NCBI GenBank assembly: GCA_964469335.1 | Contig: CAYXYK010000001.1 | Coordinates: 142,501-206,500 of the forward strand | DNA: 64,000 bases | Reading direction: 5' to 3' | Origin: an uncultured Candidatus Saccharibacteria bacterium | GTDB taxonomy: Bacteria > Patescibacteriota > Minisyncoccia > Phycocordibacterales > UBA6899 | In this document: piece after piece, positions 1 to 54,040 of the stretch | Numbering within the stretch: the stretch's first letter is position 1 | Layout of the letters: every line of letters starts with the position of its first letter | Made by a program: the position numbers and the translations under genes | The notes under the pieces: generated by a model | Told to the model about the DNA's origin: nothing | Database searches by the model: none | What the model saw: only the letters and a program-made list of their open reading frames with translations

Positions 1-1883
1 AATACCTCTACACAGCACTCGACGCCAGCGCGGGGCTCAAGAACAGTATCGATGAGCTCCTCGACCGCCCTGACAGCGAGTGGGCACTTGCTGGCACAAA
101 CAGCAAACGAGACACCGTAGCAAAAGAAGACCGTGAGCGCATCGTGGAAGCCCTGCGAAACATACGAGTACTCGACCCAGCCGTAGGGTCAGGGGCATTC
201 CCAATGGGTGTGCTGCACAAGATCCTCAGCATCTTTGAGCGCCTCGACCCCAACTTTGACTCATACGAAACAAAGCTCTCGATCCTCAGAAACAACATCT
301 ACGGGGTTGATATTGACCCGACAGCTATTGAGATTGCTCGCCTCCGCGCATGGCTCTCAATTATCGTGGACGTGGAAGAGTTGAAAAAGATAAAGCCACT
401 CCCGAACCTCGACTTTAAGTTTGTTTGCGCAAACTCACTGGTTGGACTTACGAGAAGTGCTGCATCATTTACGACCGATGACACCTTAAAGCCAACACTC
501 ATGCGCATTCGCGATGAATACTATGCGACAAGTAGCAAGGTAAAAAAAGAGAAACTCCAAAAAGAATACTTGAAGCTGACTCACAAAGAGAGTCTGTTCG
601 ACTCCGAAGAGACCAAGCAGCTCAAGAGTTACCGTCCATTCGAAGTGGGATCAAGTACTTCGTTTTATGATCCTGAACTTATGCATGGCGTAAGTGTTTT
701 TGATCTCATAATTGGAAACCCACCCTACAATGTTAAGCTTTCTGACTTGGACAAACTCACATACAAAAACAAATATACTTCTGTTAGTTCTGGCAGGCAG
801 GATACCGCGGCAATCTTTGTGCAAGCAGCAAGCGGGTTCGCAAAGAATGATTTTACCATTTCTTTTATCGTGCCCTATCGTCTTTTCTCAAGAAAAAGAA
901 ATCATGGTGCGTTTCAAGAGTACATTTTGGAACATCTGTCGATCGATGAAATAATTTACCTCGGGAAGGATGCTGGGTTTGAGTCTGCAAAAGACGAGTT
1001 TATGGTTGTCTTGCTTAAAAAACCTGACCGAGAAAATTTAGTCAAAATATGCAATAAACCTGACTTTAGAAACCTGAACCAGCTAAATTTTGTATCTGTA
1101 AAACAATCTGTTTTTAGAGAAAACGGAGAAATCAACATAAATTTACTTAAGTACGATGTTGGTATTCTAAAAAAACTTGAGTCTAGTAGCACTCCACTTT
1201 CCTCATTATGTGAGGTAAAAGATGGGATTGTCCCATATATTAGAGAGAAGATGATTAGTTCACAGAAACTAGATAGTCGGTATGTAAAATTCGCGGGAGT
1301 ATCGGGGTGCTATAAGCTTGAACCATATTATTTCCATGCTGATGAAATGTATTTGTGTTACGACATCTCTGAAGCAAAAAAGTACATTACAGACCGTGAA
1401 GAGCTCAGGAAGGTTCAGCTCAGGGATAAATCAATATACCTCCAAGAAGAAAAAATAATTACCTCTCAGAATAGTTCAAGACTTAAGGGCACTATTGATC
1501 GGGAACAGTACTTTGTTTCTAATTCAATTCACAGCACCTATCTTAAAGAAGGATATAAGGACACCCTAGCGCTTGAATTTATTTTGGGTTGTATAAACTC
1601 GTCAGCATTAAATTATTTTTACAATTCAAAAAGACTGAAGGGAGTTGATCTCCATCCTCAAATACTGATCTCCACTCTCAAGACAGTTCCAGTGCCCAAA
1701 CTAGATACACCCGAAAAGGCGGAACTTGGGTCTCGGATCGTACGGTTGGTTAGACAAATTATTGAGAGCAAGAGGGGTGGGAAATCAAATTCGAATGTTC
1801 TTGAAGAAGAGGTTGACGACTTGGTATCCGAGCTATTTGGATTAAACGAAGACGAGGTGAGGATAATCAAAGAAAACAAATGA
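1..1883 (+). CDS. N6-adenine DNA methyltransferase (Eco57I / type IIG-like), 5' partial; the reading frame is open to the window start
   Basis: Frame is open from nt 3. Motif I LDPAVGSGAF at about 168-197; motif IV IGNPPY; start codon used by the ORF track is GTG. The C-terminal half is likely the target-recognition region. Confidence 0.7.
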   Translation, partial: YLYTALDASAGLKNSIDELLDRPDSEWALAGTNSKRDTVAKEDRERIVEALRNIRVLDPAVGSGAFPMGVLHKILSIFERLDPNFDSYETKLSILRNNIYGVDIDPTAIEIARLRAWLSIIVDVEELKKIKPLPNLDFKFVCANSLVGLTRSAASFTTDDTLKPTLMRIRDEYYATSSKVKKEKLQKEYLKLTHKESLFDSEETKQLKSYRPFEVGSSTSFYDPELMHGVSVFDLIIGNPPYNVKLSDLDKLTYKNKYTSVSSGRQDTAAIFVQAASGFAKNDFTISFIVPYRLFSRKRNHGAFQEYILEHLSIDEIIYLGKDAGFESAKDEFMVVLLKKPDRENLVKICNKPDFRNLNQLNFVSVKQSVFRENGEININLLKYDVGILKKLESSSTPLSSLCEVKDGIVPYIREKMISSQKLDSRYVKFAGVSGCYKLEPYYFHADEMYLCYDISEAKKYITDREELRKVQLRDKSIYLQEEKIITSQNSSRLKGTIDREQYFVSNSIHSTYLKEGYKDTLALEFILGCINSSALNYFYNSKRLKGVDLHPQILISTLKTVPVPKLDTPEKAELGSRIVRLVRQIIESKRGGKSNSNVLEEEVDDLVSELFGLNEDEVRIIKENK

Positions 1884-3379
1884 AAGCCGTAATCGTTGCC
1901 AGAGTCTCTACAGAGGAGCAGAAAGAAGCGGGTAGCTCCCTGCCTGCGCAAATCGATCGCATGGAGTCTTATTGCAAGCGTAAGGGGTTTCCGATTATCC
2001 AGTCCTATAGCTTTGACGAGAGTGCGTACGGAACAAAGCGAGATGAGTTCGACAAGATATTGGAGCTGATCGGCAAGTCGAAAGAAAAGCTCGCAATCTG
2101 CTTCGACAAAGTAGACCGCCTCTCTCGAAATATCTTCGACAAGCGCGTACCCCTTCTCTATGAAAAGGCGGTCGCGGGGCAGATCGAGCTCCACTTCGTG
2201 TCAGACGGGCAGATACTCAACGAGTCGGTTTCTGCGGTCGAGAAGTTTCACTTTCAGATCAATCTTGGTCTCGCAAAATACTTCTCTGACGCCATCAGCG
2301 ACAACGTGAAGCGCGTAAACGAGCGCAAACGCAATACTGGGGAGCTCACAGGAAAAGCCCCTATCGGATACAAGAGTAGCAAAGTAGAGGGTAGTCCCCG
2401 AGAGGTCGCCCCCGATCCCCTGCGCGCACCCCTCATTGCACGCGCATTTGAGCTCTACGGGAGCACTAACTACTCAATACAGACACTCCACATACAAATG
2501 ATAAAAGAGGGTCTCGTAGGCATCAACGGCAAGCCAATAGCGCACAGTGTCTTTGCCCGTATCCTGTCGAACCCGTTCTATTACGGAGTCATGCAAAGTA
2601 AGGGCAAGGAATATCCGCATATCTACCAACCCCTCATTTCAGAGATGCTGTTCCGCCGATGCCAAGAGATCCTCAAGAGACGCGCCAAAGCCCCGACAAA
2701 GTACCTCTCAAAGCCCTTCGTCTTTCGTGGTCTGCTTACCTGTGAAAATTGCGGTTGTAGCTACACCCCAGAGCTCCACAAGGGTAGGTTTGTGTACTAC
2801 AGCTGTACCAATGCACGCAGGGTCTGCAAGAAGGTATATGTGAACGAGAAAGATCTTCTGAAGCCGATTTTAAGCGACCTGAGGGCATTAGGAAAGCTTA
2901 GGCAGAAGGACATCGACATGATCACAGTGGACGTGCGCAAACTGAACGAAACGAAGACCTTGTATCTCTCAAACGCAGTTGCGGGACTCCGAAAACAGCA
3001 CGACGATGCTCAGCATCGGATCGACAGACTCATGGATCTTTTTATTGATGCGAGTATTACAAAGGAGGACTATGACAAAAAGCATAAAGAGCTCAGAGAA
3101 AAACAGTATGATCTCGGTATGCAATTGGATGATCACACGAAGGCAGACGAGAACTACCATATTGCCGCTTCTACAGTGCTCAGCTTAGCGAAACGCGCCG
3201 CAGAGATTTTCGAAAGTTCTGAACCAGAGGAAAAGAACGTACTTTTGAATTATCTACTTCAGAACCCGACCGTAAACGGAAAAAACGTAAGCTATGCCTT
3301 ACGTTCTCCCTTCAATGCTATTCTCGAACTTGCTAATTGTCCCTCTGGGGGTGCCTACAGGGATTCGAACCCTGACTGA
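1880..3379 (+). CDS. Large serine recombinase (resolvase/invertase N-terminal domain plus recombinase and zinc-ribbon C-terminal)
   Basis: N-terminus MKAVIVARVSTEEQ with the catalytic Ser; CxxC...CxxC cluster (CENCGCSYT...YYSC); 499 aa; last 34 nt overlap the tRNA-His gene antisense. Confidence 0.8.
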   Translation: MKAVIVARVSTEEQKEAGSSLPAQIDRMESYCKRKGFPIIQSYSFDESAYGTKRDEFDKILELIGKSKEKLAICFDKVDRLSRNIFDKRVPLLYEKAVAGQIELHFVSDGQILNESVSAVEKFHFQINLGLAKYFSDAISDNVKRVNERKRNTGELTGKAPIGYKSSKVEGSPREVAPDPLRAPLIARAFELYGSTNYSIQTLHIQMIKEGLVGINGKPIAHSVFARILSNPFYYGVMQSKGKEYPHIYQPLISEMLFRRCQEILKRRAKAPTKYLSKPFVFRGLLTCENCGCSYTPELHKGRFVYYSCTNARRVCKKVYVNEKDLLKPILSDLRALGKLRQKDIDMITVDVRKLNETKTLYLSNAVAGLRKQHDDAQHRIDRLMDLFIDASITKEDYDKKHKELREKQYDLGMQLDDHTKADENYHIAASTVLSLAKRAAEIFESSEPEEKNVLLNYLLQNPTVNGKNVSYALRSPFNAILELANCPSGGAYRDSNPD

Positions 3380-3422
3380 AAGCTCCACAAGCTTTAGTGC
3401 TAACCATTACACTATAAGCACC
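3346..3422 (-). tRNA. tRNA-His (GUG) with G-1 and encoded CCA
   Basis: Manual fold: G-1, acceptor GTGCTTA/TAGGCAC, anticodon loop TTGTGGA, T-arm CAGGG-TTCGAAT-CCCTG, discriminator C, CCA. Confidence 0.85.
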
Positions 3423-5935: not shown

Positions 5936-6017
5936 GGGCGTGTGGCGGAATTGGTATACGCGTACGTCTCAGAAGCGTATCCCGTAAGGGTTGGGAGTTC
6001 GAGTCTCCCCACGCCCA
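5936..6017 (+). tRNA. tRNA-Leu (CAG)
   Basis: Manual fold parallel to E. coli tRNA-Leu: GGGCGTG acceptor, anticodon loop CTCAGAA, long variable arm, GGGAG-TTCGAGT-CTCCC, discriminator A. Confidence 0.85.
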
Positions 6018-6030
6018 CTTAGTTCAGAAT

Positions 6031-6169
6031 GGCGTACGTCTCAGAAGTGTGAGAAGCGAGTATGCGAGCTTCGCAAGACCTTTTGAGAGATTTTCTGAAA
6101 TCTCCAAAAGGTGAACAGCTCCTGTAGGGAGTCCCGTAAGGGTTGGGAGTTCGAGTCTCCCCATGCCCA
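6031..6169 (+). other. tRNA-Leu-like 3' portion (D-stem 3' strand to acceptor 3' end) carrying an 86-nt structured insertion after the anticodon loop
   Basis: GGCGTACGTCTCAGAAG then insertion 6048-6133, then CCCGTAAGGGTTGGGAGTTCGAGTCTCCCCATGCCCA; it lacks its own 5' acceptor strand. Confidence 0.4.
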
Positions 6170-6304
6170 CTCAGTTCAGAATAGTACACACAAAAAACTG
6201 ACTATGGTCAGTTTTTTGATTGATTGGAACATGGATGCATCATGCTGGGCTTCCTTGCTTCTCGTCACCCCTTTCGGTAGGGTGGGAGAAGATATTGGTC
6301 TCAA

Positions 6305-8787: not shown

Positions 8788-8915
8788 TAGTCGAGTGAGG
8801 ATTTGGTCACGGATAATTTCCTCGAATCGTCTTTCAAATCCAGGATTTGAAGCTTACAGCTTCAGTACACCCTTCGTGTCGTACTCGCTTCGCTTCGTGC
8901 GATATACTCAGGGTC

Positions 8916-8960
8916 TTCAAATCCTCTCACGCAAGCACGCAGGTGCTTGCTTCGGGCACA
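8916..8960 (+). repeat. Inverted partial copy of the tRNA-Leu(GAG) 3' end interrupted by a CAAG..GCAG..CTTG hairpin
   Basis: TTCAAATCCTCTCACG-[caagcac GCAG gtgcttg]-CTTCGGGCACA mirrors the T-loop and acceptor of the tRNA at 9001-9084. Confidence 0.6.
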
Positions 8961-9000
8961 GATATGAAAAAGCCGCATCAAAGCGGCTTTTTCATATCTG

Positions 9001-9084
9001 TGCCCGAGAGAGGATTTGAACCTCCATGCCCTTGCGAGCGCTACCACCTCAAGGTAGTGCGTCTACCAATTTCGCCACCCGGGC
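9001..9084 (-). tRNA. tRNA-Leu (GAG)
   Basis: Manual fold: acceptor GCCCGGG/CTCGGGC, anticodon stem-loop CTACC-TTGAGGT-GGTAG, long variable arm, GGAGG-TTCAAAT-CCTCT. Confidence 0.85.
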
Positions 9085-12667: not shown

Positions 12668-12710
12668 GATGCAAAAACAGTAGCACGAACAGGATGCAAG
12701 GTGAAATATA

Positions 12711-12749
12711 TCCGAATCCTCTATCACAAGTCGCGCAGTCAGGATTCGG
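12711..12749 (+). repeat. Partial inverted copy of the tRNA-Val 3' end (copy 1) embedded in a 9-bp-stem hairpin
   Basis: CCGAATCCTCTATCACAAGTCGCGCAGTCAGGATTCGG. Confidence 0.5.
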
Positions 12750-12853
12750 TCACAAGCTACTTGATTGCATGGAGGAATTTCGGTCGCTACACGACCAGTA
12801 CCCGTTTTCCATTCGCTCATGACATGAATCATTCGCGAATAAGGAAGAACGGC

Positions 12854-12900
12854 TTCGAATCCTCTATCGCAAGTCGCGCAGGCGACTTGCTTCGCCCACA
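12854..12900 (+). repeat. Inverted copy of the tRNA-Val 3' end (copy 2) interrupted by a CAAG..GCAG..CTTG hairpin
   Basis: TTCGAATCCTCTATCG-[caagtcgc GCAG gcgacttg]-CTTCGCCCACA, followed by palindromic terminator 12893-12939. Confidence 0.6.
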
Positions 12901-12931
12901 GCAAAACAAACCCTTGCGGGTTTGTTTCTTG

Positions 12932-13004
12932 TGGGCGATAGAGGATTCGAACCTCTGACCTTCGCTGTGTAAAAGCGCTGCTCTACCAACTGAGCTAATC
13001 GCCC
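12932..13004 (-). tRNA. tRNA-Val (UAC)
   Basis: Manual fold: GGGCGAT acceptor, GCTC-AGTTGGTA-GAGC D-arm, anticodon loop TTTACAC, AGAGG-TTCGAAT-CCTCT. Confidence 0.85.
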
Positions 13005-13151
13005 GAAATTTTTAACCCATACCGCACTGAACATTCTACTCGTATCTTCTGTTATCTACCAAGACAGCTCACCGCCAGTCAATTTCACGGTTTTAGAACA
13101 ATAGAACATTTTGTCGACATACGCAATTTTTTACGCTAAGGTACTTGTATT

Positions 13152-18073: not shown

Positions 18074-18160
18074 GGAGGAGTGGCTGAGTGGTTTAAGGCA
18101 ACAGTCTTGAAAACTGTCGTCCATTTACGTGGACCGTGAGTTCGAATCTCACCTCCTCCG
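18074..18160 (+). tRNA. tRNA-Ser (UGA)
   Basis: GGAGGAG acceptor, anticodon loop CTTGAAA, long variable arm, GTGAG-TTCGAAT-CTCAC, discriminator G. Confidence 0.85.
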
Positions 18161-18195
18161 CCCAATCAAAAAACACCTGAAGGGTGTTTTTTGAT

Positions 18196-18248
18196 TGGGC
18201 GGAGGAAGCAAGCAGGCTGCCCTGCTTGTGAGGTGAAATTCGAAGACC
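18196..18248 (-). repeat. Inverted copy of the tRNA-Ser 3' end interrupted by a CAAG..GCAG..CTTG hairpin
   Basis: Minus strand reads TTCGAATTTCACCTCA-[caagcagg GCAG cctgcttg]-CTTCCTCCGCCCA. A 24-bp palindromic terminator (18153-18200) lies between it and the tRNA; a further direct partial T-loop copy GGTTTCGAATCTCACC is at 18299-18314. Confidence 0.6.
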
Positions 18249-18430
18249 TCGCCGATGTTTCGGCTTTGCGAAACTGCCGAGGTGTACTGAAGCCGCAGGT
18301 TTCGAATCTCACCGGGCTTTTGTGACCGAATCTAATCTCTACCCTGTCCTACCACAACCCCACTCTTCCACTCCTACAGTGGGTAACTTGCTTCGTTGTC
18401 TGACTTCGTCTGTGCTAGAATAAGCACATT

Positions 18431-19080: not shown

Positions 19081-19152
19081 GTCCTCGTCGTTCAATGGAT
19101 AGGACAAGAGTTTGCGGAACTCTAAATATAGGTTCGATTCCTATCGAGGGCA
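19081..19152 (+). tRNA. tRNA-Arg (GCG), unusual anticodon
   Basis: Manual fold: GTCCTCG/CGAGGGC acceptor, GTTC-AATGGATA-GGAC, anticodon stem-loop AGAGT-TTGCGGA-ACTCT, ATAGG-TTCGATT-CCTAT. Confidence 0.6.
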
Positions 19153-20675
19153 CAAAAATTAACTTCTTCTGAAATCTGCCCCGCGCGCAAGCGCGCGGTA
19201 GTCAGGAGGGGGTGGGTGAAATCCGAATTCGTGTTGCATGCAATGGCGAATGCGGTGGGTGGGCTAAATGAGACGGTGACGGATTTATCACGCATGATCG
19301 GGTTCGTTCCGATTTTTTTGATATAGTCCCGAATTTCCAAAAAATTATCGGACGAACTCAATTCCGTGGCTTTTTTCATATCCAAAATCCACTCCCGCAA
19401 AGGTTCGACCCAATTCTTTCTCTCTGCTCGAGCGGATGCCATTTTGTGCGCGAGCGACACCTTTTGCCCAAGGAGGTCATTTTTCTTTTTTAAATATTGC
19501 TCCTTGGGGATATCTCCGTCGAGGTAGAGTCCCACGAGGGTGTCGAGTTTCTGCTGTGTCTCGCGCTCACTTCCCCGCATCCGCTCGAGCTGACTTCCCG
19601 ACGACACGGTTTCCTCTCGCTCCCACTCGTCCACCTGTTTCGACATGCTCACAATCCAGTCGTCGGGAAGTACGATGTTTTGGAGCTGTGCTTTTACCTG
19701 AGCAACGAGCACCGCCTCCCGCATGTACCCCTGCGCACATTTTCCGTTCTTTTTCGTGCACCGATAATACCGATACAGTCCACCATGTCCTTTTGCCCAC
19801 TGTGCGGTAATCATGCCCCCACACTCCCCACAACGAAAAAGTCCGGTGAATGGAAAATCGTGATGCTTTTTTGATTTCACGGGGCGTGCTCGTTTGCTCA
19901 ATCTTTTCTGCACAGCTTCAAATAAGTCGGGAGAAAGAATTGGCGGAAATGTGCCATCAAACCATTCTCCGTGATGCTTCACCAACCCCAAATATGCCCG
20001 ATTGGAAAGCATGCCGGAGATGGCACATTTCGAGAGTGGCGTTCCATTTCGCGTCACAATGCCATGATCCGCCAAAAATTGCGCCATTGATTCGTAGCAA
20101 TGTTTCCCTGTGGCGAATTCCTTAAACACGCGAACAAGCAGGCTAGATTTCACCACGTCAGGCTCAATATTTCGCGTTTTAGGGTTATTTATATATCCAA
20201 ACGGTGCTTTGGTCAGCCATTCGCCACGGCGCAGTTTCTGGCGGATTCCACGCTCCACATTCTGCTTTAAGTTGTCGGAATAGTACTTGGACTGTCCGAA
20301 CGCCACTTGCAACATAAAAAGACCTTGCGGGGTTGGTTCAAACCAAAATGTCGGGAAGCGCAAAGAAATGATCTTGGTCGTGTCTACGGCATAGATGATG
20401 CGCCCGCCATCAATACTATTGCGTGCGAGGCGATCAGGATGCCACGCGAGGATACCCACACCGTCCATCGACTCAATGCGGGACATCATCTCATTGAATT
20501 TCTCACGACCCGGTTTCTTTGCGCTTTTCGACTCTTGAAATTCTTCGAGAATTTCAAGATTTTCTTTATGTGCGAACTCACGAAGCTCAAACAACTGCGC
20601 CTCGATAGACATCACTTGCTTATCATCATCCTCCGTACTCTTTCGCGCATAAAGAAAATATTTTGATTTGCTCAT
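19122..20675 (-). CDS. Large serine recombinase
   Basis: N-terminal YARKSTEDD...SIEAQ resolvase domain with catalytic Ser; CGECGG...YYRC zinc ribbon. The 3' end runs through the left inverted repeat and 31 nt of tRNA-Arg antisense. Start trimmed to MSKSKYF. Confidence 0.8.
   Translation of the reverse strand: MSKSKYFLYARKSTEDDDKQVMSIEAQLFELREFAHKENLEILEEFQESKSAKKPGREKFNEMMSRIESMDGVGILAWHPDRLARNSIDGGRIIYAVDTTKIISLRFPTFWFEPTPQGLFMLQVAFGQSKYYSDNLKQNVERGIRQKLRRGEWLTKAPFGYINNPKTRNIEPDVVKSSLLVRVFKEFATGKHCYESMAQFLADHGIVTRNGTPLSKCAISGMLSNRAYLGLVKHHGEWFDGTFPPILSPDLFEAVQKRLSKRARPVKSKKHHDFPFTGLFRCGECGGMITAQWAKGHGGLYRYYRCTKKNGKCAQGYMREAVLVAQVKAQLQNIVLPDDWIVSMSKQVDEWEREETVSSGSQLERMRGSERETQQKLDTLVGLYLDGDIPKEQYLKKKNDLLGQKVSLAHKMASARAERKNWVEPLREWILDMKKATELSSSDNFLEIRDYIKKIGTNPIMRDKSVTVSFSPPTAFAIACNTNSDFTHPLLTTARLRAGQISEEVNFCALDRNRTYI
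19151..19258. repeat. Left copy of a perfect 108-bp inverted repeat flanking the serine recombinase gene
   Basis: Exact reverse complement of 20742-20849; begins at the last 2 nt of tRNA-Arg. Confidence 0.9.
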
Positions 20676-20741
20676 AGATTTGCTTTTGATATAAAAAAAT
20701 GAAAAGTCCGTTGTCGGCTCATTTCCTGCCTTTCTGCCCGT

Positions 20742-20849
20742 CCACCGCATTCGCCATTGCATGCAACACGAATTCGGATTTCACCCACCCCCTCCTGACT
20801 ACCGCGCGCTTGCGCGCGGGGCAGATTTCAGAAGAAGTTAATTTTTGTG
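20742..20849. repeat. Right copy of the perfect 108-bp inverted repeat
   Basis: Reverse complement of 19151-19258. Read on the plus strand it re-encodes the recombinase C-terminal peptide (ORF 20699-20893). Confidence 0.9.
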
Positions 20850-39508: not shown

Positions 39509-39668
39509 CACCCAATGATACCGCAAATTAAAAAACCTCCAATTGAGGGGTTTTCAGCATACATATCTTTGGGCAGGTCACGAATATTTTCTGCTGAAAA
39601 TTTCGCGACCCCGCCTCGCGCCGCCGCGCTCCGGCTCTAAAAACTTCCATGCTTTCAGTTTTTAGCAC

Positions 39669-39715
39669 CTTTTGGGGATTTAGGAAAATCCCTCAAAAGG
39701 TCTTGCGTGAGAAGA
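39669..39715 (+). repeat. 46-bp palindromic direct repeat, copy 1
   Basis: caccttttggggatttaggaaaatccctcaaaaggtcttgcgtgag. Confidence 0.8.
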
Positions 39716-39770
39716 CCGGAGCTCACTGAGGATTCATATCGCGCACTCGCCCTACAGGCGCAGTACACCT

Positions 39771-39817
39771 TTTGGGGATTTAGGAAAATCCCTCAAAAGG
39801 TCTTGCGTGAGTGACAG
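39771..39817 (+). repeat. 46-bp palindromic direct repeat, copy 2
   Basis: Identical to copy 1; 56-bp spacer. Confidence 0.8.
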
Positions 39818-39851
39818 CCCATCATAGGAATGATGGGTTCCCTTTCGTCAC

Positions 39852-40076
39852 TCACTCACCCCAGCTGGCACCGAACTCGTAGAGAAGTAGCTGACATGCT
39901 TCTTCGACATCCTCATCACGAAGGACGAACACATCGAACCCGAATGGTTCCTCTCCCGGCTTTACCGTACTTGGTGACCGTTCGCGCAGATAACTCTTTA
40001 TCCCTCGGGTATTCAGAAATTGGCGCGTTTCATGCGCCTGGGTCCCGTCTCTGAAGAATTTCACTCGTGAGCTCAT
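39852..40076 (-). CDS. Hypothetical small protein
   Basis: ORF only. Confidence 0.3.
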   Translation of the reverse strand: MSSRVKFFRDGTQAHETRQFLNTRGIKSYLRERSPSTVKPGEEPFGFDVFVLRDEDVEEACQLLLYEFGASWGE

Positions 40077-51354: not shown

Positions 51355-52455
51355 TTAGCCTTTCATCGGCATCACAAGGTAAGTGAATGAATGATCACCG
51401 ATCCCTTTTATAATCAATGGTTTTCCATTTCCATTCGCATAAAGTGCAATACTATCTGTTGTAAGGTATGAAAGCACATCCATTATAAAACGTTGATTCA
51501 AAAGAAATTCAACTGGGTCACCTTTCAGTGTTGCTTCAATCTGTTGTGTTGTTTCCCCAATATCATCATTCCGTGATTCGATCTCAAGAAGTTTATCTTG
51601 TGGGTATATTTTTAGACGAATTTGTTGTAATTTACCCGAAAAAACTGTGGTAAGTTTCAATCGATCAATGAAATCCTGCCGTAATAGGACCACTTCGGTC
51701 GTGTGTTGTTTTGGGATTATTTGTTTATAGTCCGGAAATACCCCATCGATCAGACGAGAGGTGATATGGATCTGGTCGGTCTTAAAAGAAATCTGATTCT
51801 TAGTCGTAGTAATAATCACCTTTCCAGATGTATTCTCAAGAGCCCTAATTAACTCTGAAACATTCTTCCAGGGAATGAGTATCGAGAACTGTTCGGTAAT
51901 ATTCTTTGTTGGGATAAGTTTCTCAGAAAGACGCGATGAATCAGTGGCAACCATGACCATTCCTTGGTCGCTAGAGTAGCAGTAGACGCTAGAAAACTCA
52001 GGTTTGATGTCTGATACCGCTGCGGCGAATTGAGTGGCTTTAAATCCAGAAATGAGCGTTTTAATATCCATCTCAAAAACTATTCCCTTAGTCACAAATG
52101 GAAGTGTTGGAAAATCCTCATATCCAAAACCCTTAATAAGAGTTGAATACGACGATCCGGTGATAGTTAGATGCTCACCAATCTGTTCAATTATGATATT
52201 TTTTTCTTGAGGAAGATTTGAGAGGAAACTCCCAAGTATATCTGCTGGGATCGCTATAACACCTTCTTTTTCTATCTTAGCAGGGATCTCAATCTCAATA
52301 CCGAGATCGAGATTTGTCGCACGAAGTTTTAATGCTTTCTCTGAGGCAATAAATAGTACATATCGAAGTACAGGTAATGAAAGTTGTTTACCAGTGAATC
52401 GTTCAGCAGTAAGAAGTGCGTCTTTGAGATTGAGTTTTACACATTCAACTTTCAT
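51355..52455 (-). CDS. dnaN: DNA polymerase III beta sliding clamp
   Basis: Three-domain beta clamp; MKVECVKLNLKDAL N-terminus. Confidence 0.9.
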   Translation of the reverse strand: MKVECVKLNLKDALLTAERFTGKQLSLPVLRYVLFIASEKALKLRATNLDLGIEIEIPAKIEKEGVIAIPADILGSFLSNLPQEKNIIIEQIGEHLTITGSSYSTLIKGFGYEDFPTLPFVTKGIVFEMDIKTLISGFKATQFAAAVSDIKPEFSSVYCYSSDQGMVMVATDSSRLSEKLIPTKNITEQFSILIPWKNVSELIRALENTSGKVIITTTKNQISFKTDQIHITSRLIDGVFPDYKQIIPKQHTTEVVLLRQDFIDRLKLTTVFSGKLQQIRLKIYPQDKLLEIESRNDDIGETTQQIEATLKGDPVEFLLNQRFIMDVLSYLTTDSIALYANGNGKPLIIKGIGDHSFTYLVMPMKG

Positions 52456-52690
52456 ATTCTCTATATTAATACTAGTTATATCTATTACTCCTGTGGATAT
52501 GTGGATGAAGTGATTTTCATGAAGTAAGAATTCATTACTTCACTCAATTACCGACTGTGTATATTGTGAAGATATCTTCATTTATCCACAGTAGCGATCG
52601 AGTATTATATTCTATCCACATCTCACCCACACACTAACACTGACATTACTCACAGTTTATCTCTATCTATCCACACACTTTTTAACATCT
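52456..52690. promoter_or_regulatory. Putative oriC: DnaA-box cluster in the dnaA-dnaN intergenic region
   Basis: At least five TTATCCACA-like 9-mers: TGTGGATAT 52492, GTGGATGAA 52501, TTATCCACA 52582, CTATCCACA 52612, CTATCCACA 52667. AT-rich. Confidence 0.6.
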
Positions 52691-54040
52691 TTAGAACAAT
52701 GCACGGATCTGTTCTATCTCCTGCATTAATAATGAGTCGGATTTAATATCAACTTTTATCTTTTCACATGAATGGATAACAGTCGTGTGGTCACGTCCTC
52801 CAAGTTTTTGACCAATAAGCGGATAAGAAATATTGAAATCCTCACGAAGTATATACATCAATACTTGTCGAGGTTTCACCACTTCCTTCCTTCGGGTCTT
52901 TTCATAAATGAAACGCTCATCGATGTTATAAAAACTCGTCACTGTTTTAACGATATCTTTTATCGACACCGGTTTTGTCGGTTTTGCGTTGTTCTTTATA
53001 AGGGTCTTCACTTCATTAAGTGAAAGTACCTTATTTTTCAGTTGAGCTTGGCAGACAACAAGATTTAACGTTCCCTCTAATTCACGGATACTCGCCTGAA
53101 TAGTCTCAGCGATATATGAAACAATCTCATCGGGAATTGAAATCTGTTGTTGCTTGAGTTTCTCATTCAAGATAGCTAAACGAGACTCATAATCAGGCAT
53201 GGTTATTTCAACAATCATCCCCGAACCAAATCGTGATTTCAATCTATCTTCAAGACCGTTGATGTAATTAGGGTGTTTATCAGATGAAAAGATGATCTGC
53301 TTATTGTTTTCATAAAGTGCGTTGTATAGATGAAATAATTCCTCCTGGGTCTTCTCCTTCCCTACAAGGAATTGAATATCATCCATAATAAGTACATCAT
53401 ATTTTCTGTATTTCTCTTTGAATTCACTTACTTTATTGTTCTGCAGTGAATTCACGTAGTCGGTCGAAAATTTCTCAGAACTCACATATTGGATCTTCTT
53501 ACTCGGATTCTGTTTTTTCACCCCATTACCTATGGATTGGATCAGGTGTGTCTTACCAAAACCCGTTGAACCATATATGAAAAGCGGGTTATACATGATA
53601 CCTGGCTTCTTTAATACTGCCTGAGCAGCGGCATATGCAAGTTCATTGAAAGGACCAATAACAAAAGAATCGAATACATATCTCGGATTTAAGCCGTCTT
53701 CTTTGCCAACATATACGTCTTGAAGCGGTAATTCTGCCCCAAAAACAGGGTAGTTTTCTTTTTTTGGTGATTGCTCAGATTTATCACCAGCGTCTTCTTT
53801 TGCGATGATGTATTCAACCCCTTTCACTTCAGCGGAAAGGTTCCGGAGGACACGGAGCACGGATGAGTTGTATTTATTGATGAGCCAGTCCCGAACAAAT
53901 TCGTTTTGGACACCGATATATACCGTCCCGGCATCTTGCTTCACGATCCTTGTGTTCTTAAACCAAGTACTAAAATTAGCTTTTGAGACCTCTAGTTCGA
54001 TATCCACCATGGCTTTCGCCCACAACTCTTTATTATCCAT
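52691..54040 (-). CDS. dnaA: Chromosomal replication initiator DnaA
   Basis: Walker A GSTGFGKTHL; sensor motifs; C-terminal DnaA-box-binding domain. Confidence 0.9.
   Translation of the reverse strand: MDNKELWAKAMVDIELEVSKANFSTWFKNTRIVKQDAGTVYIGVQNEFVRDWLINKYNSSVLRVLRNLSAEVKGVEYIIAKEDAGDKSEQSPKKENYPVFGAELPLQDVYVGKEDGLNPRYVFDSFVIGPFNELAYAAAQAVLKKPGIMYNPLFIYGSTGFGKTHLIQSIGNGVKKQNPSKKIQYVSSEKFSTDYVNSLQNNKVSEFKEKYRKYDVLIMDDIQFLVGKEKTQEELFHLYNALYENNKQIIFSSDKHPNYINGLEDRLKSRFGSGMIVEITMPDYESRLAILNEKLKQQQISIPDEIVSYIAETIQASIRELEGTLNLVVCQAQLKNKVLSLNEVKTLIKNNAKPTKPVSIKDIVKTVTSFYNIDERFIYEKTRRKEVVKPRQVLMYILREDFNISYPLIGQKLGGRDHTTVIHSCEKIKVDIKSDSLLMQEIEQIRALF

Follow-up and report, generated by a model that had tools for sequence, protein, structure and literature searches.

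What are the hairpin-split mirror copies of tRNA ends that lie beside three tRNA genes of this genome, and do they belong to something larger? Within the analyzed window, a 64,000-nucleotide stretch of DNA, the pattern CAAG-N3-6-GCAG-N3-6-CTTG occurs three times, at 8932-8949 (+), 12870-12889 (+) and 18209-18228 (-), whereas shuffled sequences give 0.20 occurrences on average and none of 100 shuffles reaches three. All three stems are perfectly complementary, with different interiors (CAC, TCGC and CAGG). Each hairpin lies inside an inverted copy of the T-loop, T-stem and acceptor 3' strand of the adjacent tRNA. The matching segments are 12854-12870 against 12935-12951 for tRNA-Val (17 nt, 100%), 8916-8931 against 9005-9020 for tRNA-Leu(GAG) (16 nt, 94%), and 18230-18244 against 18141-18155 for tRNA-Ser (15 nt, 93%). 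The acceptor part lies in palindromes that also contain a terminator-like stem, with arms that are perfect over 25 nt at Leu (8952-8976/8983-9007) and 24 nt at Ser (18154-18177/18183-18206), but 21 nt and only 76% matched at Val. The observation made in the sequence-only reading, that mirror copies of tRNA 3' ends are interrupted by covarying hairpins at these three loci, is thus confirmed.

The term mirror copy of the 3' end is literally correct, since at three acceptor G.U pairs (Leu G6.U67 in the window, Tyr in L009 and Gly in L014; L numbers denote related loci and the contigs carrying them) the mimic is the exact complement of the 3' strand and not a copy of the 5' strand. The same G.U positions reject the possibility that the mimic represents the 5' strands of a second, tandem tRNA-like pseudogene. 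The second, simpler copy that had been noticed at Val is a truncated older copy, as 12713-12738 is a 26-nt direct repeat (96%) of 12856-12881. However, two points of the earlier description were corrected. The four nucleotides before the hairpin form a conserved CNCG motif rather than acceptor bases, and the CTTCG or CTTCC that follows the hairpin is CT plus acceptor positions 67 onward. In addition, the acceptor split is only one of several layouts seen in relatives. The other five tRNAs of the window have no canonical mimic.

The hairpin and mimic are the inner part of an apparently undescribed family of tightly folded, gene-less DNA elements of 150-230 bp. On the mimic strand each locus reads, in order, a displaced direct repeat of the tRNA 3' end (X2), hairpin A with a TTACA loop, a GTACA linker, variable hairpin B, the T-arm mimic, CNCG, the GCAG hairpin C, CT, the acceptor mimic and a palindromic terminator-like stem, and finally the real tRNA. 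R1 denotes the covariance model built for the family. The features annotated in the window are as follows.

8817-8963, plus strand: Leu(GAG) element, whole R1 match from X2 through the acceptor mimic (123 bits, E=5e-35).
8842-8851, plus strand: X2, displaced direct repeat of the tRNA-Leu T-arm (antisense AGGATTTGAA), fused to an older sense T-loop fragment at 8833-8841; alignment score 11 against a shuffle maximum of 9.
8849-8863, plus strand: hairpin A (GAAGC-TTACA-GCTTC), followed by the linker AGTACA at 8864-8869; all five pairs show compensatory changes across the family.
8869-8914, plus strand: hairpin B, with closing stem ACCCT/AGGGT, variable interior and tip CTCGCTTCGCT; 88% identical to the L017 copies.
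8915-8931, plus strand: T-arm mimic CTTCAAATCCTCT plus the CACG motif.
8931-8950, plus strand: hairpin C, GCAAGCAC-GCAG-GTGCTTGC.
8952-9007, without strand: perfect palindrome with 25-nt arms (100%), comprising the acceptor mimic (8952-8960), a trailer, a terminator-like stem with A/T tracts, and the real acceptor end of tRNA-Leu (9000-9084, minus strand).
8792-8811, plus strand: X1, an older junction, consisting of the antisense T-arm remnant CGAGTGAGGATTTG followed by GTCAC; the same GGTCAC junction occurs at the Val and Ser loci and in L009.
12750-12903, plus strand: Val element, whole R1 match (111.5 bits).
12782-12852, plus strand: hairpin A (GGTCG-CTACA-CGACC, 12782-12796), linker AGTAC, and hairpin B (CCGTT...AACGG, 12802-12852), with a DNA-fold z-score of -5.25; the X2 just upstream (12771-12783) is degenerate and not significant.
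12853-12900, plus strand: T-arm mimic (12853-12865), ATCG, hairpin C (12870-12889), CT, and acceptor mimic TCGCCCACA (12892-12900).
12904-12927, without strand: terminator-like hairpin AAACAAACCC-TTGC-GGGTTTGTTT between the mimic and tRNA-Val (12931-13004, minus strand).
12713-12753, plus strand: truncated older copy (T-arm mimic plus the first half of hairpin C), joined to the antisense T-arm AGGATTCGG and TCAC.
18195-18335, minus strand: Ser element, whole R1 match (110 bits).
18195-18245, minus strand: acceptor mimic (18195-18206), CT, hairpin C (18209-18228), CTCA, and T-arm mimic CTTCGAATTTCAC (18233-18245).
18246-18313, minus strand: hairpin B (18246-18283), linker, hairpin A (18289-18303), and X2 direct repeat TTCGAATCTCACC (18301-18313; 13 nt, 100%), with a z-score of -4.69.
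6030-6185, minus strand: variant, an A/B module of the same family inside a 5'-truncated second copy of tRNA-Leu(CAG); partial R1 hit at 6075-6131 (-), 21.8 bits, E=5e-5.
39560-39860, plus strand: orphan and duplicated A/B modules with no tRNA nearby, preceded by the long GGTCAC... hairpin; partial R1 hit at 39748-39804, 25.8 bits.

Pattern scans and the covariance model found about 25 more copies in metagenomes and in Parcubacteria (Lloydbacteria-like) MAGs. These lie next to at least 13 tRNA species, namely Leu(GAG/TAA/TAG/CAG), Val, Ser(TGA/CGA), Tyr, Asn, Gly, Cys, Lys and Arg, and share one order and one orientation. The search patterns required CAAG, GCAG and CTTG, so this sample carries an ascertainment bias. 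A scan of a collection of genome contigs that does not include the source genome found only one true copy (L004). X2 matches the antisense tRNA 3' end better than all 500 shuffles in 12 of 13 loci, with a perfect match of 18-22 nt in L016, L019 and L025 and a decayed match elsewhere; X2 at the Val locus of the window is not significant. All adjacent tRNAs are intact, as called by ARAGORN and Rfam, and the palindrome runs continuously from the acceptor into the element. Tandem and nested truncated copies occur in L009, L026, L028, L029 and at Val in the window.

The stems of hairpins A, B and C covary strongly. The 25 tRNA-independent pairs are 93.7% paired against 67.8% in shuffles, and 96 cells show a change on both sides against 26.7 in shuffles; none of 500 shuffles reaches the observed values. 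Slid registers pair at 46% or less, and DNA-fold z-scores run from -4.0 to -8.8. G.U and A.C exceptions are equally frequent at about nine each by our tally, showing no strand bias, which argues against a one-strand RNA constraint. However, hairpin C is dispensable in some relatives. For instance, a terminator takes its place in L017, and in L051 its loop carries a 55-nt insert.

Comparison of orthologous rplS-tRNA-Leu(GAG) loci revealed gain and loss. The element is present in the window, L008 and L051, is reduced to remnants in L046 and L047, and is absent in L048 and L049. The A/B module behaves as a separable unit. It is 95.5% identical between two loci of L017 that have different tRNA-derived flanks and 88% identical between L017 and the Leu locus of the window. 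In contrast, it is unrelated between the window and its 93%-identical ortholog L008, where the mimic plus hairpin C are 100% identical. Ten near-identical strains, represented by contigs that carry the identical Gam protein, show no polymorphism at the Leu locus.

No ORF was found in the element, and no recombinase lies within reach of the three mimic loci or of about 15 related loci. Searches of Rfam 15 at the gathering threshold and at E<5 returned nothing but tRNAs. No match was found in 50,697 phage records and 72,556 plasmid records, as searched by blastn with the element, or in IMG/VR. Pattern searches of viral contigs gave one chance hit in a coding region for the right end and four chance hits for the left end, all of 11 bits or less and none near a tRNA. 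Full-text literature searches found no description of such elements.

Taken together, we consider it somewhat more likely than not, with moderate confidence, that the GCAG hairpin and the tRNA-end mimic are the tRNA-proximal module of a non-autonomous integrative element specific for the T-loop (positions 53-57) of tRNA genes in Parcubacteria-like candidate-phyla-radiation (CPR) bacteria. The analysis itself shows that the element supplies the present 3' end of the tRNA and its palindromic terminator, that the former 3' end is displaced outward as X2 with repeated events leaving tandem, truncated copies, and that in single-stranded form the element is predicted to fold into a conserved five-helix shape. 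In this fold, X2 or the real tRNA 3' strand pairs with the mimic and re-creates the T-arm/acceptor duplex of the target, hairpin C is a side branch, hairpins A and B cap the T-loop end, and the recombination junction sits at the foot. What we only infer is that the element is non-autonomous and moved by an enzyme encoded elsewhere, that a single-stranded DNA step takes place, that the attachment site is recognized as a folded target mimic as for CTX-phi attP(+) or integron attC, and that the mimic is kept identical to the tRNA arm by selection and/or palindrome correction. Mobility rests on comparative inference, as no recombinase, excised circle or empty-site read was identified, and the three copies of the window are old and mutually divergent. 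The mimic stays perfect while X2 decays, which needs an extra assumption of selection or of quasi-palindrome template-switch correction, and such correction could also produce apparent compensatory changes without any function. Likewise, replacement of A/B next to an unchanged mimic and hairpin C requires deletion between tandem copies or separate mobility of the A/B module.

The interpretation offered in the sequence-only reading is partly supported. Its claims that the hairpin is under structural constraint and that its position is reproducible hold, covariation being retained in about 25 further copies, and a recombination-site reading fits best, whereas the proposed link to the serine recombinases of this window is not supported. 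Two outcomes named in advance as refuting were examined. Re-examination of strand, against the possibility of ordinary direct-repeat att remnants, showed that the mimic really is inverted, but that true direct repeats of the tRNA 3' end also exist further out and bound a larger element that had not been seen; absence of the hairpin at orthologous loci gave the mixed result described above. The alternative role in termination is plausible only for the tRNA-proximal palindrome and not for the hairpin plus mimic.

Each of the competing explanations appears unlikely, although none is without support. The least improbable is a host cis-acting module of tRNA transcription units, a bidirectional terminator plus a structured spacer that insulates or processes tRNA transcripts and is inherited vertically and lost now and then. 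The tRNA-proximal palindrome indeed has a GC stem flanked by A and T tracts, the element must be transcribed in L026, where it lies between co-oriented tRNA-Cys and tRNA-Leu with no terminator, it persists at Leu(GAG) from the window to L051, where L19 is 74% identical, and the mimic and hairpin C are fully conserved in L008. However, the element is absent or degraded at orthologous loci (L046-L049), four of the eight tRNAs of the window carry no part of it and a fifth, Leu(CAG), only an A/B module, orphan copies have no tRNA nearby, the A/B module is shared between unrelated tRNAs, a terminator scan did not call the palindromes, and displaced direct repeats and tandem truncated copies are not expected for a processing signal. 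An independent small RNA is similarly doubtful, be it an sRNA on the mimic strand ending at the shared terminator or, on the tRNA-sense strand, a tRNA-like RNA (acceptor 5' strand, AG, hairpin C', CGNG, T-arm, acceptor 3' strand) acting as a decoy, a sponge or an RNase P/Z substrate. The cloverleaf-like fold (L016), the topology of the tRNA-sense strand, which is that of a tRNA with a single arm, a promoter-like site upstream in L004 and a G.U pair in hairpin C on the mimic strand of L023 are in its favor. In contrast, promoter scans found no conserved promoter, with zero or one irrelevant site at the loci of the window, and the structured part starts at the element boundary, which leaves no room for one. 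The balance of G.U and A.C exceptions, the decay in most copies of X2, which the tRNA-like acceptor stem needs, and the lack of any Rfam or tRNA-model hit for the element even at E<5 also speak against it. Passive growth of palindromes, in which template switching at the terminator hairpin copies the tRNA end to the other side and the hairpins are by-products without function or mobility, would fit the perfect 24-25-nt arms that include a non-functional trailer, the tracking of the neighboring tRNA by the mimic and the absence of strand bias in mismatches. Nevertheless, it cannot explain the conserved non-palindromic motifs (TTACA, GTACA, CNCG, the GCAG loop and CT), the fixed module order across 13 or more tRNA species or an A/B module that is 88-95% identical at unrelated loci, and in L017 the mimic skips the acceptor and so is not a continuous extension of the palindrome.

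Similarly improbable are att sites or remnants of phages or of the large serine recombinase elements that target tRNA genes in this genome. Two large serine recombinase genes, the only recombinases of the window, end inside tRNA-His and tRNA-Arg(GCG), and the quasi-palindromic nature of serine-integrase attP sites could rationalize an inverted copy of the target arm. However, these two tRNAs have no mimic, no GCAG hairpin and no model hit, no direct repeat of their ends exists in the window, and the mimic lies 60-100 nt from X2 and 40-70 nt from the tRNA T-loop and does not abut a crossover as att half-sites would. A guide RNA for an RNA-guided recombinase or nuclease (IS110 bridge/seek RNA, TnpB omega RNA or TIGR-Tas) programmed against both strands of the tRNA gene is the least likely. 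The element does contain sense and antisense copies of the target in a conserved scaffold, but these pair with each other instead of lying in open loops, the direct repeats are 18-22 nt rather than a 2-nt core, no DEDD, TnpB or Nop-domain protein was found in the window or in neighboring genes, and there is no array of 36-nt units as in TIGR (PMC12045711). An IS91-type CAAG/GAAC target was also considered, but the junctions do not fall after GAAC consistently.

Among known systems, tRNA-gene-targeting integrative elements and their non-autonomous derivatives (CIMEs, integrase-less islands) share insertion in the 3' part of a tRNA gene, restoration of the tRNA 3' end, the displaced 3' end as a direct repeat, tandem accretion, and occupied and empty sites among relatives. 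The present element differs in being only 150-230 bp with no ORF at all and in carrying an inverted copy of the target and three covarying hairpins, and no cognate autonomous element or integrase was found. Another comparison is with CTX-phi attP(+) and other IMEX elements (PMC3442271). These exploit host XerCD and need no recombinase of their own; two inverted arms fold into an imperfect hairpin that imitates the chromosomal target duplex, and after integration one arm stays as an inverted repeat next to the hybrid site. The resemblance is structural only; the target here is a tRNA T-arm and not dif, no dif-like 28-bp site and, by inspection, no XerC/XerD arms with a 6-bp spacer are present, and the element is about 30 times smaller and not a phage. 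Integron attC sites (PMC4792948) offer a further parallel. They conserve structure while sequence is not conserved, with the recombination point at the foot of a folded hairpin, extra-helical features on one arm and a variable terminal loop. However, the element has no R/L boxes (GTTRRRY/RYYYAAC), since its T-loop GTTCRAA does not fit, no cassette ORF, attI or IntI was seen, and its arms copy the target tRNA.

REP/REPIN-RAYT elements and IS200/IS605 miniature derivatives (PATEs) are likewise ORF-less hairpin elements, presumably moved in trans, with conserved short motifs next to the hairpin feet (GTAC here, GTAG in REPs). The present elements are not high-copy, being few and divergent in the 64 kb of the source genome analyzed, are flanked by 10-22-nt direct repeats of the target and are tRNA-linked. 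The only Y1 transposase (Y1_Tnp) was seen in the relative L051, where the hairpins are unrelated and the flanking hairpin occurs nowhere else. In pdif modules of Acinetobacter plasmids, short modules are bounded by recombination-site copies in alternating orientation and are swapped between otherwise conserved contexts, as for the A/B module in the window compared with L008; here the sites are T-arm copies rather than XerC/D sites, the A/B module is never inverted in about 25 copies, and there are no cargo genes.

If the preferred reading is correct, this would be one of the smallest site-specific integrative elements known, in CPR bacteria whose mobile DNA is poorly charted. The pairing of a target copy with an inverted copy of the same target, plus three structure-constrained hairpins, points to recognition of a folded target mimic, a principle so far known only for integron attC sites and Xer-exploiting phages. 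The same scaffold has been re-fitted to at least 13 tRNA species, and the way in which the mimic is re-templated could reveal a programmable targeting rule. A more far-reaching possibility, which we consider unlikely but not excluded, is a recombinase-less mobile element of roughly 190 nt that exists as a folded single strand (a dumbbell or cloverleaf) whose stem is a copy of the 3' end of its target tRNA gene. Targeting would then be set by sequence identity between the built-in mimic and the tRNA gene, so that the family could be re-targeted to any tRNA, and strand exchange at the T-loop would be carried out by a host enzyme recognizing structure rather than sequence; this would be a new, self-templated way of choosing integration sites. 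On the practical side, these palindromes can be mistaken for att remnants or for sRNAs, and they break assemblies at tRNA genes, where contigs L005, L006, L008 and L013 end.

ARAGORN identified eight tRNA genes in the window. The hairpin pattern CAAG-N3-6-GCAG-N3-6-CTTG occurs exactly three times, against 0.20 expected, and none of 100 shuffles reached three. Each occurrence lies 40-70 nt from the 3' end of a tRNA gene, on the strand opposite to it:
9000-9084, minus strand, tRNA-Leu(GAG)
12931-13004, minus strand, tRNA-Val(TAC)
18074-18162, plus strand, tRNA-Ser(TGA)

A search for repeats confirmed inverted copies of the T-loop and T-stem of 15-17 nt at 93-100% identity, as well as palindromes that run from the acceptor through the trailer and a terminator-like stem. 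The arms of these palindromes are perfect over 25 nt at Leu and 24 nt at Ser, while at Val they span 21 nt at 76%. At three acceptor G.U pairs the mimic is the complement of the 3' strand and not a copy of the 5' strand; it is therefore a true mirror copy. The second, simpler copy that had been described at the Val locus (12711-12749) is a truncated older copy, a 26-nt direct repeat at 96% identity. Thus, the observation made in the sequence-only reading is confirmed. A degenerate (71%) antisense copy of a tRNA 5' half also lies just upstream of tRNA-Val, at 13055-13085, and is probably the relic of another tRNA gene.

Alignment of the three loci revealed further shared motifs upstream of the mimic, and the hairpins proved to be part of a larger element that the sequence-only reading had missed. 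A pattern scan of species-representative genomes returned one true relative, L004 (L numbers designate contigs carrying related loci), a contig binned as Patescibacteria with the element at tRNA-Leu(GAG). A scan of metagenome contigs returned 24 loci, of which 16 have a perfect or near-perfect hairpin stem and eight are chance hits. Of these 16 loci, 11 have an inverted tRNA next to the hairpin (Tyr, Ser-TGA, Ser-CGA, Gly, Leu-GAG, Leu-TAG, Asn or Val), three end before the tRNA position, and two lack a normal tRNA. On the mimic strand, all copies read in the following order:
X2, an antisense copy of the tRNA 3' end, ending in the T-loop
hairpin A, with the loop TTACA
the linker nGTACA
hairpin B, a 5-bp covarying closing stem with a variable interior of 30-110 nt
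the mimic, C-TTCRAAT plus the T-stem 3' strand
the motif CNCG
hairpin C, GCAAG-N3-4-GCAG-N3-4-CTTGC
CT plus acceptor positions 67-73 and the trailer
a terminator or spacer
the real tRNA

A covariance model built from 16 copies scores the three window copies at 110-123 bits. The model also found further copies at tRNA-Cys, Lys, Arg, Leu-TAA and Leu-CAG, and two partial copies in the window at 6075-6131 and 39748-39804. The first of these (minus strand) belongs to a region at 5936-6185, where tRNA-Leu(CAG) is followed by a 5'-truncated second copy of itself with the same 11-nt trailer. That second copy is interrupted at the boundary between the anticodon stem and the variable arm by an 85-nt insert carrying hairpins A and B of the same family; the module is therefore not restricted to T-loops. 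The other partial copy belongs to orphan A/B modules at 39560-39860 that have no tRNA nearby. Here, hairpin B plus CTTGCGTGAG is duplicated in tandem, and the modules are preceded by a long hairpin, GGTCACGAATATTTTCTGCTGAAAATTTCGCGACC, which recurs in L026 and L017. The GGTCAC foot of this hairpin marks the older junctions at all three window loci, so it is possibly a second element family.

The layout varies between relatives. In L017 a terminator stands in place of hairpin C and the mimic covers only the T-arm, in L029 (Lys) hairpin C follows a contiguous T-arm-plus-acceptor mimic, and in L051, a Lloydbacteria MAG contig, hairpin C carries a 55-nt insertion. In L012, L026 (Cys) and L046, a close relative, the CAAG/CTTG base changes, while the GCAG loop stays. 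In L012 (1301-4354), two inverted copies of tRNA-Ser(CGA) plus element flank a GH5 cellulase gene and a 2-hydroxyacid dehydrogenase gene, and the two hairpin C copies differ by a compensatory pair (CAAG/CTTG against CAGG/CCTG).

To assess structural constraint, we counted only the 25 pairs in stems A, B and C that owe nothing to the tRNA. Of these cells, 93.7% form standard pairs, against 67.8% in shuffles, and 96 cells show a double change, against 26.7; none of 500 shuffles reached the observed values, and slid registers gave 46% or less. The CAAG, GCAG and CTTG columns were imposed by the search pattern, whereas the interior pairs and stems A and B were not. When folded as DNA in silico, the window copies have z-scores from -4.0 to -5.3. 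The fresh copy in L016 reaches -8.8 and is predicted to form a five-helix, cloverleaf-like fold composed of an acceptor helix, a T-arm helix, and hairpins A, B and C. By our tally, G.U and A.C exceptions are about equally frequent, roughly nine each, giving no sign of a one-strand RNA constraint. A recurrent loop motif, TTCGCTACGCTCACT or CTCGCTTCGCT (AGCGnAGCGA on the tRNA-sense strand), sits at two different hairpin tips, namely the tips of hairpin B (window 8884-8897; L004, L013 and L017) and the tRNA-proximal spacers of L019, L025 and L029. This motif faintly resembles the CS-6 TAGCGT motif of single-strand origins.

Several observations point to integration and turnover. X2 matches the tRNA 3' end above every shuffle in 12 of 13 loci; the match is a perfect 18-22 nt in three of them and decayed in the others, and the junction falls at tRNA positions 53-57. 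Outer truncated copies lie in tandem in L009, L026, L028, L029 and at the window Val locus. Homologs of L19 place the organism near Candidatus Lloydbacteria and Uhrbacteria, at 74-84% identity, with Candidatus Lloydbacteria as the best named relatives. The Pfam content, with T4SS_pilin proteins and dnaA/dnaN, is consistent with this placement. The genes dnaN and dnaA lie at 51355-54040, so the window is origin-proximal chromosome, and several T4SS_pilin-domain proteins and a TraG-like ATPase (55-64 kb) are typical of CPR bacteria. Among orthologous rplS-tRNA-Leu(GAG) loci, the element is present in the window, L008 and L051, reduced to remnants in L046 and L047, and absent in L048 and L049, while Leu-CAG carries a canonical copy in L046 and L049. 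In L046 (2117-2791), a LAGLIDADG-like ORF is inserted between rplS and tRNA-Leu(GAG). The A/B module is 95.5% identical between two L017 loci with different tRNA-derived flanks and 88% identical between L017 and window Leu. In contrast, it is wholly different between the window and L008, whose flanking gene is 93% identical and whose mimic plus hairpin C are 100% identical; deletion between tandem copies, or separate mobility of the A/B module, would explain this difference.

The element matches no Rfam family, has no phage, plasmid or viral-contig match, and has no ORF and no neighbouring recombinase at the loci examined. Two large serine recombinase genes in the window end about 32-34 nt inside the 3' end of a tRNA gene on the opposite strand, which suggests integrated islands, although no far-end repeat was found in the window:
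1880-3379, plus strand, large serine recombinase gene, overlapping tRNA-His (3346-3422, minus strand) and preceded by an Eco57I-type methylase gene (144-1883)
19122-20762, minus strand, large serine recombinase gene, overlapping tRNA-Arg(GCG) (19081-19153, plus strand)

However, both junctions lack every motif of the element. The interpretation offered in the sequence-only reading is thus only partly supported: a structure under constraint and a recombination context hold, whereas the proposed relation to the recombinases of the window does not. Bridge-RNA, TnpB and TIGR-Tas readings fail on architecture and on the missing effectors. A further lead was an IS200-like Y1 transposase gene (223 aa) in L051 (1550-2345), but it is flanked by GTCAAGGTTTAACCTTGAC hairpins that are unrelated to the tRNA elements.

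The analysis shows that a conserved, foldable, ORF-less element lies between a displaced tRNA 3' end and the live one, its distribution is patchy, and its modules are shared across tRNA types. The mechanism, on the other hand, is inferred. In this view, the element integrates by a crossover in the T-loop, and the element-borne copy of the tRNA end pairs with the inverted mimic to present a duplex imitation of the target, with the crossover at the foot of the fold, as in the logic of CTX-phi attP(+) and integron attC. The chemistry would be performed by a trans-acting, possibly host, enzyme acting on a form that may be ssDNA, a cruciform or dsDNA, and the mimic would be re-templated when the target changes. 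The perfect arms may reflect either selection or quasi-palindrome correction. Literature searches yielded no description of this family, whereas the type of element to which we assign it, a tRNA-targeting, non-autonomous integrative element, is already known. That the targeting principle itself is new remains possible but unlikely. Several short-read contigs (L005, L006, L008 and L013) end exactly at these tRNA-element palindromes, which suggests that the elements break assemblies.
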